Shown here: piece after piece, positions 41,886 through 48,729 of the stretch | Numbering within the stretch: the stretch's first letter is position 1 | Layout of the letters: every line of letters starts with the position of its first letter | Source of the DNA: a virus | Taxonomy: Duplodnaviria > Caudoviricetes | Length of the DNA: 64,000 nucleotides | Virus record (IMG/VR): IMGVR_UViG_3300015608_005401 | Location: 1 to 64,000 of that record | Direction: 5' to 3' (one strand) | Made by a program: the position numbers and the translations under genes | Notes under the pieces: model-generated | The model's input: only the letters and a program-made list of their open reading frames with translations | What the model was told of the DNA's origin: nothing | The model's database searches: none

Positions 41886-42665
41886 ATGAAAAAAAACAAA
41901 CCCGAAGTACTAGAACAAAATGAAAAAAACTTTGAAACAGAGCCAACTTTTGCTGATATATATAATATAAATTATTCTGATGCGCAAGCATCATTAACGG
42001 CAAAAAATGGCAATACTATTGAGGATGAATTAATGACTCCTCAAACAAAAAATGAACGGCAAATTATGGAATCGAAGGCGATTTTATTCAGCGAACAAGA
42101 AAAAATCTTTAGAGAAAGAACGGGTAAGGATTTCTCTACACTCTACACAAAGTACTACCCAAAATTAGTTTATTTTACATCTAAAATTACTAATGACCCT
42201 CAAAAAGCCGAGGATATCTCAACAGACTCATTTATGGCGGCTTTTGAAAAAATTGAGAAATATGAAAAAGAAAAATCTCAATTCTCTACCTGGCTATTTA
42301 CTATAGCAAAAAACTTAGCACTTCAAGACCTTAAAAGCGAAAAGAAAACAATGTCATTAGATATTGAGTTTGACGATGAAGGTACAACAATGAAGGATTT
42401 TATTCAAGAAGACGAGAACGACAATCACATTCATGAAATTCACGCAAAGAAAGCTGAAATTATGAAAAGACACATTTCAATGTTGAAAAGTCCATATCGT
42501 GATGTTATTGAAATGAGAGAGCTTAAAAAGATGTCATATAAAGATATATCTGATAAACTTAATCTCAACTTATCAACAGTGAAATCTCAAATTAGAAATG
42601 GCAGAGCTATCTTAGTTCGCGAGACTAAGAAAGAGTTTGATGCTATCGATGAAATGCTAGGTTAA
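41886..42665 (+). CDS. ECF-like sigma-70 factor
   Basis: Region 2 AEDISTDSFM..FSTWLFTIAKN; region 4 MSYKDISDKLNLNLSTVKSQIRNGR. Confidence 0.9.
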   Translation: MKKNKPEVLEQNEKNFETEPTFADIYNINYSDAQASLTAKNGNTIEDELMTPQTKNERQIMESKAILFSEQEKIFRERTGKDFSTLYTKYYPKLVYFTSKITNDPQKAEDISTDSFMAAFEKIEKYEKEKSQFSTWLFTIAKNLALQDLKSEKKTMSLDIEFDDEGTTMKDFIQEDENDNHIHEIHAKKAEIMKRHISMLKSPYRDVIEMRELKKMSYKDISDKLNLNLSTVKSQIRNGRAILVRETKKEFDAIDEMLG

Positions 42666-44461: not shown

Positions 44462-44896
44462 ATGAAAATTACAACAAATAGAAAAGCTTATTATGAATAC
44501 TTTGTGTTGGAAGACTTCGACGCAGGTATGGTTCTATTGGGCAATGAAGTTAAATCAATTCGTGAGGGTAATGTAACCATCACTGATTGTTTTGCTTATA
44601 TAGCAAGTGGTGAAATATTCTTAAAGAATATGAAGGTAGCCAGATATAAACAAACTCATATGGCAGAAAAACATGATGAAAATCGTGATAAGAAACTATT
44701 GCTAAATAGAAAAGAAATAGACAGAATTGAAAAGTTGCTTCAAGATAAAGGAACAACTATGGTTCCTCTTGAGATATTCACAGCACACAATAGAATTAAA
44801 GTTAAAATTGGAGTAGTAAAGGGTAAAAAACTTTACGACAAAAGAGAAACTATTAAAAAAAGAGATATGGATCGTGAGATCCGTCGTAGTATGTAA
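44462..44896 (+). CDS. smpB: SsrA-binding protein
   Basis: NRKAYYEY, AGMVLLGNEVKSIR, RDKKLLLNRKEI, GKKLYDKRETIK. Confidence 0.95.
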   Translation: MKITTNRKAYYEYFVLEDFDAGMVLLGNEVKSIREGNVTITDCFAYIASGEIFLKNMKVARYKQTHMAEKHDENRDKKLLLNRKEIDRIEKLLQDKGTTMVPLEIFTAHNRIKVKIGVVKGKKLYDKRETIKKRDMDREIRRSM

Positions 44897-44897
44897 C

Positions 44898-45266
44898 ATG
44901 GCTCGTAAGACAAAGAACGATGAAAAGGTTTTAGAAGACCTTAGAAACTCAAATACAGAAGAGGATATACTTAAAAACCTCGTAAAAATAGTAAAGGGTT
45001 TTGACCAAGAAAAATATAAAGAGATTATATATTCTAATCCTTTTTATAAATCACTTATTCCTGATATTCAAAAAGAAGTTATTAACGATCTTGAAACGAT
45101 TGCTAAATCAATTCACGAAGAAATACTAACAATTGAGTCAGATTTAAAGAAAATTGGAAGTAAGGATTCTGAAAAACAGTTAAAGTCTTTAAAGAAAGAT
45201 TGTTTATCATTGATTTATGAGATAGATGCTCGTAAAAAAGAGGTAAGTATGTTATCTCAATATTGA
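44898..45266 (+). CDS. Coiled-coil hypothetical protein (start re-called at MARKTK)
   Basis: ATG two bases after the smpB stop. Confidence 0.6.
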   Translation: MARKTKNDEKVLEDLRNSNTEEDILKNLVKIVKGFDQEKYKEIIYSNPFYKSLIPDIQKEVINDLETIAKSIHEEILTIESDLKKIGSKDSEKQLKSLKKDCLSLIYEIDARKKEVSMLSQY

Positions 45267-45840
45267 TTGAACATATCTTTCAATCTGTTTAGTTTTTTTA
45301 ATATCTTCTAAAATATCATTATTTCTTCTTTCGGAGTAATCGTTTATCCAATACTGAACATCACTTGTATAATGAAAATCATTTAAGACACTTCTAGTGT
45401 ATCCGCTAAATTGAAATTCTTTTTCACCAACTAAACTTCTGATAGATTTCAATTTAGTAACTATCATTTTTAAATCTTCAATAGTTTGAACATTTTGTGA
45501 AAGTAGATAATCTTTAATCTTTTTACCAATTTCTATAAATAGATTGAATAGTTCTATAACCAATTCCAATCCACTATTATTTATATATCTAAGACATTCT
45601 GTATATGTCTTTCTATAGTCTTCGGAGTAATCATTTAATGATTTAAATGAACTGACTATTCTTGATAAGTAATGCTCTTTATCTTCTTTCAATTCTGTTC
45701 TTATCATATCATAAAGATAACCAGATATGTTTTCTAAATAGTCAAAACTTGGTCTGCTTTTGTATATAGATATAAATCCAAATTCATTACATATAGACTT
45801 TAGTATTAACTTTTGAAGATTTTTTAGTTCTTCAATGTCT
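45252..45840 (-). pseudogene. 3' part of a hypothetical gene, 5' end lost at the junction near 45840
   Basis: Plausible helical sequence from DIEELKNL; upstream codons are antisense to an unrelated fragment. Confidence 0.45.
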
Positions 45841-46090
45841 GTCGTGATTCCCATTTTACCTACTACTGCAAACAATATGGATAATACACTATCCCGTATA
45901 GTATATACCAGTTGTAATGTTTCTTCTATACCAAGCTCAACATTACAAACACCACTACCTGTAGAATATTCTACTCCGGGATTATATAATATTTATTTAG
46001 CCATTGATGAAGGCTTACCAACAATGAAAGTTGATTGTAAGTTAGTACGTGTCTTACCAAAACCTTACATTGAAATTAATAATGATACCC
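45841..46090 (+). pseudogene. Internal fragment of a PKD/Ig-like secreted protein
   Basis: VEYSTPGLYNIYLAIDEGLPT..CKLVRVLPKP; no start context, both ends abut truncated genes. Confidence 0.45.
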
Positions 46091-47125
46091 TAAAGCAGTT
46101 AAATACCTTTCAATATTCATTCTTCTAATTGTATCATCAGATAAAAATTTACTAGCTCCTTCTTTTGACTCTTTTCTTTCTTTATTTATTGATGAAACTG
46201 TTTTTAATTTAAATAGGTCTTCCAATATTAAAACAACAGCAAAGTCAGCTCTTTTCAAATCCTCATAACTATTAATGGACCAATCATAATTAAACCAGTT
46301 ACCAACTTGAAATCTTGAATTTGTTGGTAAATTATAATCTAATGGGTTTTCCTCACCTTCTTCTTTAATTGTTTTTTGATATCCTTCTACAGTAAGAGGT
46401 TCTTCTGATGGTGTGTAAATATATAGTTTATGATGATCATCTCCGGGAGAATGTACGCTATTCAATGACCAAGAATCTGAAAATCTACGAGGTCCAAAAG
46501 ATTCATCATTTCTCCAGTCTGTCCAGTTTTCACCATCTATGTCATTATCAGATGATCCACCTGAGGCAACATTTTGTATGGCATATGCATAATCACCATC
46601 TCTCCATATTTTAGCTAAGCCTAATCTTGATAAATCTTCCCCATCATCAGAGAAAACACCTATAACAAATGAACCATGTTTCAAATCTGTATCATAGTTT
46701 TTAACAGGTGTTAAATTTCCAGTTTTTATTCCTAGATTATTCTTGATATAATCAACTTCTTCATCACTATATTTCTCGCCATAACTTCCTCTTCTTTTAC
46801 GTTCCTCAAACTTATACACTTGGTTACCGGTTGATGTAAATCCAATGTAACCTTCATTTAATGAAAACCAAAATTTAAGACAATAAATTCCTCTTGGATT
46901 TTCAGAATCTTTATCACTTCTTAATTTTAAGGCTTGATTTCTATTTAAGTATTTAATGTCCTTATCACTGATTTTGCTGATAGGAATATCTAGTTGTTCT
47001 TGTAATTTCAATAATCTGCTACGAAATCTATTAACAGAATCTTTATCTACTTTATTACTAAGATACTTAATCGCTTTAGATAGTGCTGTTGATTCAAATG
47101 CTTCGTATAACTTTAAATACTTCAT
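46076..47125 (-). CDS. MKYLKLYEAFES-type protein, 3'-truncated near 46090
   Basis: N-terminal motif; TTAATATATA at 47130-47139. Confidence 0.7.
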   Translation of the reverse strand: MKYLKLYEAFESTALSKAIKYLSNKVDKDSVNRFRSRLLKLQEQLDIPISKISDKDIKYLNRNQALKLRSDKDSENPRGIYCLKFWFSLNEGYIGFTSTGNQVYKFEERKRRGSYGEKYSDEEVDYIKNNLGIKTGNLTPVKNYDTDLKHGSFVIGVFSDDGEDLSRLGLAKIWRDGDYAYAIQNVASGGSSDNDIDGENWTDWRNDESFGPRRFSDSWSLNSVHSPGDDHHKLYIYTPSEEPLTVEGYQKTIKEEGEENPLDYNLPTNSRFQVGNWFNYDWSINSYEDLKRADFAVVLILEDLFKLKTVSSINKERKESKEGASKFLSDDTIRRMNIERYLTALGYHY

Positions 47126-47145
47126 AAACTATATATTAAAAATTA

Positions 47146-47177
47146 TTTGGCAAATTAAAACTTTGTTACTATCTTTG
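47146..47177 (+). promoter_or_regulatory. Bacteroidota housekeeping-type promoter
   Basis: TTTG (47146-47149), 20 nt, TATCTTTG (47170-47177). Confidence 0.7.
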
Positions 47178-47183
47178 TATAAG

Positions 47184-47570
47184 AATTAACCAAGTCATTG
47201 AGACAACAGTCCTAAAAGGATAAGTCGAAAGACCTCACAAAATATGATAAGAAAAAAGTGTGAGTCTCAATGAAATTATGGTAGTAAGTAACTGTCAAAT
47301 AATTTAACACCCTTGTTAAAAAACAGTGAACTACCTTGTATAATATATTAATAATGATATAGTAAGGGTGTAGATATCAAAATTGTGTTGGTGATAGATA
47401 TCTCAAATAACTAATGATTAAATCCAACTCAAAGAAGATATTACCCGAGCAGAATGGTAACACTGCTCAACCAAGGCGATGAGCCATTAAAAGGTAATCC
47501 TAAGTGATGAGGTCACTAAAAGTCAAGTTCCAGAGGTTCTCGGATTCCAACCATACTTGACAGGCGTTCC
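47184..47570 (+). ncRNA. Large multi-domain structured ncRNA candidate (about 390 nt)
   Basis: No ORF; at least 10 helices, GAAA tetraloop and two loop-receptor complementarities (see findings). Confidence 0.7.
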
Positions 47571-47611
47571 AAAGTCTTCTTTTTATTTAGAAATTATTAA
47601 AAACAAAGTAT

Positions 47612-48016
47612 ATGACACTGAAAGAAAAAATTAATGCAGACTTTATAACAGCTCTTAAATCAAAGAACGCTGTTGCTAAAAGCATACTTTCCGTTGTGAA
47701 AGGTGAAATTCAAACCGTTGAAAAGAATGTAGGTTCTGATAATCTTTCAGACGTTGAAGTAACTAAGATTTTAACAAAAACTGTTAAGTCTCTTAAAGAA
47801 ACTATTTCAATGGCTAATGACGAAAAGTCTAAACTTGAATTGGCTATTGTTGAAGTATATCTTCCAAAGCAAATGTCTAAAGAAGAAGTTACTGCTAAAG
47901 TAACTGAACTTGTAAATTCTGGTATCACACAAATTGGTGCTATAATGAAAGAGTTTGCAACACTTCCAGCTGATAAAAAAATGGTTTCAGAAACTATTAA
48001 AGAAGTTGTCAAATAA
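47612..48016 (+). CDS. GatB/YqeY domain protein
   Basis: LKEKINADFITALKSK..LSVVKGEI..ELAIVEVYLPKQMS.EE..IGAIMK. Confidence 0.9.
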   Translation: MTLKEKINADFITALKSKNAVAKSILSVVKGEIQTVEKNVGSDNLSDVEVTKILTKTVKSLKETISMANDEKSKLELAIVEVYLPKQMSKEEVTAKVTELVNSGITQIGAIMKEFATLPADKKMVSETIKEVVK

Positions 48017-48585: not shown

Positions 48586-48671
48586 GGTGTCGTTAGTGTC
48601 AGCGGTGAGTCTTCGGACGAGCATATGGCTCTGTGAAAGCCAAGGGACGGGTTCAAATCCCGTACGACACC
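48586..48671 (+). tRNA. tRNA-His(GUG) with an extra UUCG hairpin in the D-loop
   Basis: G-1 8-bp acceptor GGTGTCGT/ACGACACC; TGGCT-CTGTGAA-AGCCA; GGGTTCAAATCCC. Confidence 0.85.
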
Positions 48672-48729
48672 CCTTGATTTTTTTTGACTTTTGATTTTAA
48701 TATATAAAGAAATCAAAAGTCAAAAAAAA

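Follow-up and report, generated by a model that had tools for sequence, protein, structure and literature searches.

The window analysed here, positions 1 to 64,000 of the IMG/VR virus record IMGVR_UViG_3300015608_005401 (Caudoviricetes), carries on its + strand, at 47146-47590, a unit free of open reading frames (ORFs) that has a Bacteroidota-type promoter and encodes a structured RNA of about 400 nucleotides (nt). The RNA is real, its fold is conserved and it is read from the + strand; it occurs as a single copy in a conserved gene neighbourhood and is without a match to any known family. It belongs to what is apparently an uncatalogued and undescribed class of large, pseudoknotted RNAs specific to huge phages. 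As to its role, the reading that we put forward, and to which we give roughly even credence, is that the unit is a gene in its own right, whose product is a stable structured RNA that belongs to a new family and acts in trans, most likely as the RNA component or scaffold of a phage translation module.

Evidence for a conserved RNA fold

The same intergenic region was found by BLAST in the 634,780-bp uncultured phage LR745206, and further IMG/VR copies were gathered by means of the flanking yqeY gene together with invariant words of the RNA; one scan of metagenome contigs gave 91 stretches. Removal of duplicates left 80 sequences of full length and 81 of the core, with 43-87% identity to the window. 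The conserved core is about 310 nt long, and the RNA reaches about 400 nt in the window, where an accessory 5' domain is present.

Conservation among these homologues tracks base pairs, with compensatory changes and with insertions and deletions that are not multiples of three. The structure was derived from a mutual-information scan and inspection of the alignment and was then scored by counting pairs over the alignment. In the 81 core sequences the 66 pairs of the 11 helices are paired in 90.0% of cases, as against 36-43% when the 3' partners are slid by 1-3 columns. Changes on both sides of a pair affect 43 pairs and 494 cells, compared with 33.9 and 161 in shuffles, and none of 500 shuffles reaches the observed values. 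Mutual-information analysis recovers the same helices independently, and the window sequence forms all 11 of them. The covariation by which the original prediction of a large RNA was to be judged is thereby present across 81 distinct homologues. Folding of the + strand is also unusually stable (z = -4.46, with none of 100 shuffles as stable), the corresponding value for the - strand being z = -2.39, and the helices contain 379 G-U oppositions against 97 A-C, an excess that places the RNA on the + strand. Many unpaired nucleotides are invariant in the alignment.

These properties leave next to no room for the view that the locus is not an RNA gene at all, whether it be a protein-coding region in another genetic code or a spacer with chance stems in AT-rich DNA. 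Alternative codes are used by some related huge phages, and short AU stems are common in DNA of 30% G+C, as in the window. However, no open frame was found in the RNA region on either strand under table 11, as originally predicted. Each of the six frames carries several TAA, TAG and TGA stops, so that no single stop reassignment opens an ORF, and the window has a coding density of 87% under table 11. The covariation and the frame-breaking insertions and deletions contradict both forms of this explanation.

The RNA lies in an ORF-free gap of 486 nt (47126-47611), bounded on the left by a leftward gene that ends at 47125 and on the right by the rightward yqeY gene. Its promoter is of the type TTTG-N18-22-TAnnTTTG, here with about 20 nt between the two elements. 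The window contains 14 occurrences of this motif, where 3.9 are expected and none of 100 shuffles reaches 14, and the motif is kept in relatives, which bears out the earlier claim that the RNA has a promoter of its own. Judged from the position of the motif, transcription probably starts near 47181-47185. An extended form of the motif, TTTGGCAA...TAnnTTTG, stands before small transcription units at 47146, 48017 and 52780 and at 11 other sites. The window also contains a sigma-70 family gene (41886-42665), so that a phage sigma factor may recognise part of this set. The promoter of the RNA would be of phage or host type.

Architecture of the RNA

The RNA consists of a conserved 5' half with two pseudoknots, a conserved 3' half with a third, and, in some lineages including that of the window, the accessory domain 1 (Table 1). 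Every motif quoted in the original prediction is present where it had been placed, and most of the helices that it proposed from the single sequence are recovered in the alignment.

Table 1. Coordinates of the RNA, its structural elements and the adjacent translation genes in the window. Pairing values refer to the alignment of 81 core sequences, except for domain 1.
Feature	Position	Strand	Sequence or description	Evidence
smpB	44462-44896	+	ribosome-rescue factor	Pfam PF01668, E 1.2e-52; 2.3 kilobases (kb) upstream
Promoter, Bacteroidota type	47146-47177	+	-33 TTTG 47146-49; -7 TAtcTTTG 47170-77	kept in relatives
Domain 1	47196-47272	+	accessory four-way junction	RNAalifold, 33 subfamily sequences
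P1	47196-204/47264-272	+	domain 1 closing helix, CATTGAGAC/GTCTCAATG	10 pairs, 7 changed both sides
Domain 1 hairpin a	47209-13/47217-21	+		covaries in subfamily
Domain 1 hairpin b	47224-33	+	GTC-GAAA-GAC	covaries in subfamily
Domain 1 hairpin c	47235-39/47259-63	+		seen in window sequence only
H1	47280-85/47330-35	+	GGTAGT/ACTACC	97% paired, 3 pairs changed both sides
H2	47291-95/47323-27	+	ACTGT/ACAGT	91% paired, 4 pairs changed both sides
Pseudoknot 1	47307-14/47364-71	+	ACACCCTT/AAGGGTGT	96% paired, 6/8 pairs changed both sides
H4	47372-78/47397-403	+	hairpin, AGATATC/GATATCT	85% paired, 6/7 pairs changed both sides
Pseudoknot 2	47387-91/47424-28	+	GUUGG/CCAAC	83% paired, 4/5 pairs changed both sides
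H5	47431-39/47574-82	+	long-range helix closing 3' domain, AAAGAAGAU/GUCUUCUUU	78% paired, 9/9 pairs changed both sides
H6	47447-52/47463-68	+	hairpin, GAGCAG/CUGCUC	99% paired, 2 pairs changed both sides
H7	47475-47485	+	small hairpin, GGC/GCC here	63% paired, weak support
Pseudoknot 3	47496-500/47542-46	+	AAUCC/GGAUU	99.5% paired, 3/5 pairs changed both sides
H8	47503-07/47513-17	+	hairpin AGUGA-UGAGG-UCACU, then invariant UAAAAGU	invariant in alignment
H9	47522-28/47555-61	+	GTCAAGT/ACTTGAC	88.5% paired, 4/7 pairs changed both sides
H10	47535-38/47549-52	+	inside H9	97% paired, essentially invariant
Single-stranded tail	47562-47573	+	AGnnGUUCCAAA	GUUCC >90% conserved
yqeY	47612-48016	+	GatB/YqeY-type tRNA-binding domain	Pfam PF09424, E 1.1e-15

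In the 5' half, the pairs of H1 and H2 are among those with the highest mutual information. The junction between these helices is a conserved internal loop, AAGUA/GA, whose sequence we take to resemble the sarcin-ricin or loop-E S-turn (AGUA/GAA). The loop of H2 holds the 5' strand of pseudoknot 1 (ACACCCUU), which pairs with AAGGGUGU across an AU-rich, variable linker (47336-63) and exists in the compensated forms ACATCTTT/AAAGATGT and ATATCCTT/AAGGATAT. Similarly, the conserved loop of H4, UUGUGUUGGUGAUA, holds the 5' strand of pseudoknot 2, for which the alignment contains the register variants GTGTTG/CAACAC and GGTGT/ACACC. H1, H2, H4 and both of these pseudoknots had been proposed from the window sequence and stand in the homologues. 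A further hairpin of the original prediction, TTTAAC/GTTAAA, competes with pseudoknot 1; it is 61% paired and is not conserved.

The 3' half is closed by H5, every pair of which varies in a compensated manner; in locus L036, for example, the two strands read ATGAGAGAC/GTCTCTCAT. A U-rich run (47583-89) directly follows the helix, and a T run of at least four occurs after H5 in 55 of 79 copies. H5 and the U run together probably form a leaky 3' end or terminator, a suggestion drawn from their arrangement. The loop of H6, AAUGGUAACA, is 10 nt long and nearly invariant, and supplies one side of a candidate fourth tertiary pairing, UGG.AAC (47455-61) with GUUCCA (47566-71) in the single-stranded tail. 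This pairing is 96.7% compatible with the alignment, both sides being almost invariant; the tail and the H6 loop change together in the L036 clade. The UGGN of the loop and an internal UUCCA are reminiscent of the T-box pairing with the 3' end of a tRNA, a likeness that would favour a leader. The neighbouring H7 ranges in length from 9 to about 40 nt among relatives.

Pseudoknot 3 crosses H8 and the 5' strand of H9, and is found with the alternative strands AAGCC/GGCTT, AAGTC/GACTT, AACCC/GGGTT and AAATGA/TCATTT. H8 is invariant because it served as a search key; in L232, recovered by means of another key, the stem reads GUGAU/AUCAU. H9 encloses the conserved segment GGUUCUnGGnUUyCGACC. Members of one subclade (L041, L060, L064, L065, L066, L078, L080, L088, L120 and L125) carry within H9 an extra hairpin of about 20 nt, AACGCGAGTAATACATAGCGG, between the 5' strand and the conserved GGUUCUAGG segment (alignment columns 405-427), which marks a point where insertion is tolerated. 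By eye H8 resembled a hammerhead or C/D-box motif and the H9 region the 3' end of 16S ribosomal RNA; both likenesses were rejected, as the bases on which they rest vary within the family.

Of the 3' elements in the original prediction, GAGCAG/CTGCTC (H6) and GTCAAGT/ACTTGAC (H9) are upheld by the alignment, and AGTGA/TCACT (H8) survives in altered sequence in L232. The GGC/GCC hairpin exists as the variable H7. The proposed ATTACC/GGTAAT helix is 57% paired and is not conserved. The helix that closes the domain and pseudoknot 3 are additions, and because of them the RNA extends to about 47590. The earlier extent (47146-47570, about 390 nt) was therefore right as to a large RNA and too short at the 3' end. 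The two ends of the RNA are here placed from these sequence features and should be taken as approximate.

In clade C, L053 and L095 domain 1 is either lacking or cannot be aligned, and for this reason it is regarded as accessory. Within the 33-sequence subfamily that has it, the closing helix and hairpins a and b hold as first proposed, whereas TCACA/TGTGA (hairpin c) is found in the window sequence only.

Distribution, neighbouring genes and known RNA families

The family appears to be restricted to huge phages. The homologues come from viral or metagenome contigs of up to 476-634 kb, and the RNA is present in exactly one copy in each of five phage records. Of two scans of genome contigs for cellular homologues, the one made with a key word of the RNA over the genomes of 185,579 prokaryote species gave no matches, and the other gave a single chance match in Nocardia. 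Three candidate members (L037, L038 and L119) proved to be false positives. When viral contigs were searched with a looser pattern for the pseudoknot 1 domain, almost all matches were random, and an nhmmer profile rescued L232 only. A more distant phage, whose YqeY is 61% identical, has an element of about 115 nt directly after the smpB stop codon (L005:2523-2660, + strand) that by eye looks like H1, the AGUA loop and pseudoknot 1 (UCUCCUU ... AAGGAGA) and ends in a clean terminator. The nhmmer profile of the pseudoknot 1 domain does not detect it, so that it is at most a candidate relative. The hosts of these phages are probably Bacteroidota, on the basis of the promoter type and of a comparison with the 'Mahaphages' of more than 634 kb, which Al-Shayeb et al. 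(PMC7162821) assigned to infection of Bacteroidetes.

The surroundings of the RNA are rich in translation genes. In 72 of 81 unique copies the next gene is yqeY, which starts about 30 nt after the RNA, and arrays of tRNA genes follow 1-2.5 kb downstream. A canonical smpB is found on the same strand no more than 3.3 kb upstream in 24 of the 30 unique copies that have enough upstream sequence to be counted. Its product in the window aligns with SmpB proteins of solved structure across the core and into the C-terminal tail. In the L058/L069/L126 clade the order is smpB, one small gene, RNA. Rearrangements do not break the association of the RNA with smpB and yqeY, which is seen at SmpB identities as low as about 51%. 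Elsewhere in related huge phages, about 40 kb from the RNA locus, there is a gene for ribosomal protein bS21 (G001:171243-171386, G003:117782-117934, LR745206:296654-296806); none was found in the 74.7-kb record that holds the window.

Other neighbours are less readily placed. A divergent gene upstream of the RNA, usually between it and smpB, is a single ORF of 510-575 amino acids (aa) in at least 30 relatives (e.g. L002:870-2513, - strand). In the window (45252-47125, - strand) two ORFs in different frames take its place, one of 349 aa (46076-47125) and one of 207 aa (45252-45875), a sign of a frameshift, a stop or an error of assembly. The protein matched nothing in Pfam, PHROG or the PDB sequences. 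With its AlphaFold model (predicted local distance difference test score, pLDDT, 82) Foldseek returned nothing at E<=0.001, and the best VIA-align scores (Z 5.6) were to generic helical bundles. An upstream gene of 434 aa has only a weak nucleotidyltransferase match.

All 4227 families of Rfam 15 were compared by cmscan with the whole window at the gathering threshold, and with the RNA region, whole and in halves, at E<=10. The former search found only tRNAs and the latter only chance matches (microRNA, small nucleolar RNA and viral elements), so that no known family is matched by the region as a whole or by its domains. There was, in particular, no covariance-model match to ROOL, GOLLD, OLE, raiA or HEARO, and no paper describing the family was found in the literature. 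With the strong covariation, these results favour what the original prediction had called a functional, possibly new, class of large non-coding RNA. Bacterial RNase P RNA is similar in length, in having pseudoknots and in a plausible link to tRNA arrays, but no RNase P model matches at E<=10 and no P4-type conserved regions are recognisable.

A further known RNA for comparison is transfer-messenger RNA (tmRNA; SsrA, RF00023 and its permuted forms), which is likewise about 300-400 nt long, has several H-type pseudoknots and is encoded downstream of smpB on the same strand. A canonical tmRNA was rejected. ARAGORN, run on the window and on 106 related loci, called no tmRNA, RF00023 gives no signal in the RNA, and there is neither a tRNA-like domain nor a tag frame. 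No T-arm, acceptor stem ending in NCCA or G3-U70 pair can be found. The only 7-bp stem with a single strand after it is H9, whose third pair is C-G or U-A and which is succeeded by AGnnGUUCCA and then the H5 strand. CCA is absent in the L036 clade, and CCA-like motifs are not conserved. As for a tag, stops occur in all frames, no frame is kept through the insertions and deletions, and covariation identifies the candidate segment as a strand of H5. The GGnUUyCGAC segment, which had seemed to us to be like the tmRNA D-loop, is actually one strand of pseudoknot 3, and the helices follow one another in an order that fits neither the standard nor the permuted tmRNA layout. Another reading is that of a tmRNA that has diverged strongly, or a mimic or decoy of one, which would take part in trans-translation together with the phage SmpB or else block the process. 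It has in its favour the position downstream of smpB, where many bacteria keep ssrA. The length of the RNA and its number of pseudoknots are tmRNA-like. Moreover, in five related phage records (three of them complete or nearly so, and two of the five with an estimated completeness of 95-97%) a single canonical smpB is present in each and no tmRNA passes the Rfam cut-off, the RF00023 matches in them being tRNAs only, all below that cut-off. Nevertheless, the failure of both search programs and the absence of a tRNA-like domain and of a tag frame make this reading very unlikely, even though tmRNA-like RNAs without a coding sequence are known in phages (PMC11915505).

Some sub-threshold RF00023 matches of 115-131 nt were considered as mini-tmRNAs and rejected, as they are tRNA-like genes with inserted hairpins. 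Intact acceptor and T arms are combined with long insertions in two tRNA-like genes: L026:1501-1631 (G001) has about 70 nt inserted in its anticodon region, and L131:148-237 (G000:67447-67536) a hairpin in its D region. Both fall below the cut-off of the tmRNA model, and neither is called as a tRNA. The window itself has a tRNA-His-like gene at 48586-48675 (+ strand) that neither ARAGORN nor the Rfam tRNA model calls and for which RF00023 gives a partial match to the T-arm only. The gene combines a normal T-arm with an acceptor stem of 8 bp (G-1:C73); its anticodon loop reads CTGTGAA (GTG), and its D region contains an inserted GTC-TTCG-GAC hairpin.

The location of the RNA might also reflect conserved gene order only, the RNA being unrelated to SmpB and YqeY and acting as a self-assembling particle of the ROOL/GOLLD kind or as a ribozyme. 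ROOL and GOLLD occur in phage genomes next to tRNA arrays (bioRxiv 10.1101/2024.12.08.627333), and are likewise orphan, highly structured RNAs without a known partner protein. The original prediction had drawn attention to them, rightly as to the setting and as to the shorter length of the present RNA, which is about half of theirs; homology is not found at E<=10, and the host range, here huge phages that probably infect Bacteroidota, also differs. In favour of this view are the many invariant unpaired nucleotides, which suggest tertiary contacts or an active site, and the 6 of 30 unique copies that have no smpB nearby. The size, the lack of similarity to any Rfam ribozyme or ornate RNA, and the consistency of the smpB/yqeY linkage speak against an unrelated function, which we consider unlikely.

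An independent gene and its possible role

The proximity of yqeY raises the question of whether the RNA is simply its leader, as the original prediction had offered as an alternative. Such a cis-acting, riboswitch-like or protein-binding 5' untranslated region (UTR) would control yqeY through a ligand, tRNA or YqeY itself that switches H5 and so sets read-through or translation. The close spacing of the two is seen even in clade C, where the upstream genes differ, and the U run after the 3' strand of H5 suits a switch of this kind. In the window no promoter motif and no clear hairpin terminator lie between the RNA and yqeY, so that yqeY is probably co-transcribed by read-through, and to this extent the leader proposal is sound. 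There is also a precedent in the rpsU-yqeY operon of Francisella, which is controlled through its 5' UTR (PMC13374519). Like this and other structured leaders and riboswitches, such as the T-box and ribosomal protein leaders, the RNA is directly 5' of a translation-related gene, and its closing helix and U run could gate read-through. In several relatives, however, the RNA and yqeY come apart. A full promoter motif separates them in clade C and L232; in L095 a strong terminator (-16.3 kcal/mol, z = -6.5) directly follows H5 and is succeeded by a different gene; L110 has kept the RNA and lost most of yqeY by deletion; and the RNA is followed by another small gene in L054 and L058 and by a tRNA in L068. 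No conserved alternative hairpin or expression platform was found in the 3' flank, which has a mean z of -0.48 over 69 copies; local hairpins using the 3' strand of H5 do occur in several lineages, the flank as a whole not being significantly structured. Typical expression-control elements are, furthermore, far smaller and less knotted than this RNA, whose core has about 310 nt and three pseudoknots. The terminator, the separate promoters and the loss or replacement of yqeY in relatives argue that the RNA is an independent gene and not only a leader, and this separability, the lack of a conserved alternative hairpin in the flank and the T run together lead us to rank an independent, trans-acting RNA above a yqeY leader, which seems rather unlikely.

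Clade C (L039, L044, L052, L097 and L114) has a further feature at this junction: 10-45 nt after the RNA there is a hairpin, GGTGGATT-AAAA-AATCCTCC, followed by TTATATTT, which falls precisely inside the spacer of the promoter motif of yqeY. A double role is conceivable for it, in ending the RNA and in forming part of the promoter that comes next.

In the reading that we prefer, the stand-alone gene for a trans-acting RNA, transcription would proceed from the promoter at 47146-77. The 5' half folds as two consecutive pseudoknots (H1/H2/pseudoknot 1, then H4/pseudoknot 2) and the 3' half as a five-way junction closed by H5 and containing the third pseudoknot and several invariant loops. H5 with its U run would set a leaky 3' end, and in the subclade of the window yqeY would be expressed by read-through. 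The RNA may then bind SmpB, YqeY or both, two tRNA-elbow binders whose genes are its neighbours, as part of a phage translation module that would comprise smpB, yqeY, the tRNA arrays and the bS21 gene elsewhere in the genome, and such binding would change the handling of tRNAs or stalled ribosomes in the infected cell. To our knowledge, natural RNAs that are large, contain several pseudoknots and keep many unpaired bases invariant have almost always proved to be ribozymes, ribonucleoprotein scaffolds or self-assembling machines. SmpB normally binds the tRNA-like domain of tmRNA, and YqeY-type (GatB-tail) domains bind tRNA (PMC1865053, PMC2811023). The stability of the RNA, its action in trans, its protein partner and its part in translation are all suggested by fold and gene context, and are put forward as such.

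Several observations weigh against this reading. Clade C and L095, which make up the 6 exceptional copies, lack smpB within 4.5-10 kb upstream and have different upstream genes, with yqeY still following the RNA in clade C. Gene order is conserved overall in this phage group, so the neighbourhood may reflect ancestry and not function. The lack of a promoter or clear hairpin terminator between the RNA and yqeY in the window leaves some probability for a role in cis. Finally, related phages with smpB and no tmRNA of their own imply that the phage SmpB either uses host tmRNA or works with the RNA, and a fully canonical SmpB could simply do the former. A narrower proposal, that the RNA is a dedicated partner of SmpB, a tmRNA-like rescue or anti-rescue RNA without a tRNA-like domain, with YqeY as a second tRNA-elbow-type binder in the same particle, is quite unlikely in our estimation. 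If it were true, huge phages could reprogram or block trans-translation by means of an RNA of wholly new architecture.

New classes of RNA of this size are, as far as we know, rare, and the 81 distinct natural sequences are sufficient for structure determination and for a covariance model. The RNA is specific to huge phages that carry translation genes of their own. Its linkage with smpB and yqeY provides a testable route into the takeover of ribosome rescue and tRNA handling by these phages, as well as to the role of the poorly understood YqeY protein.

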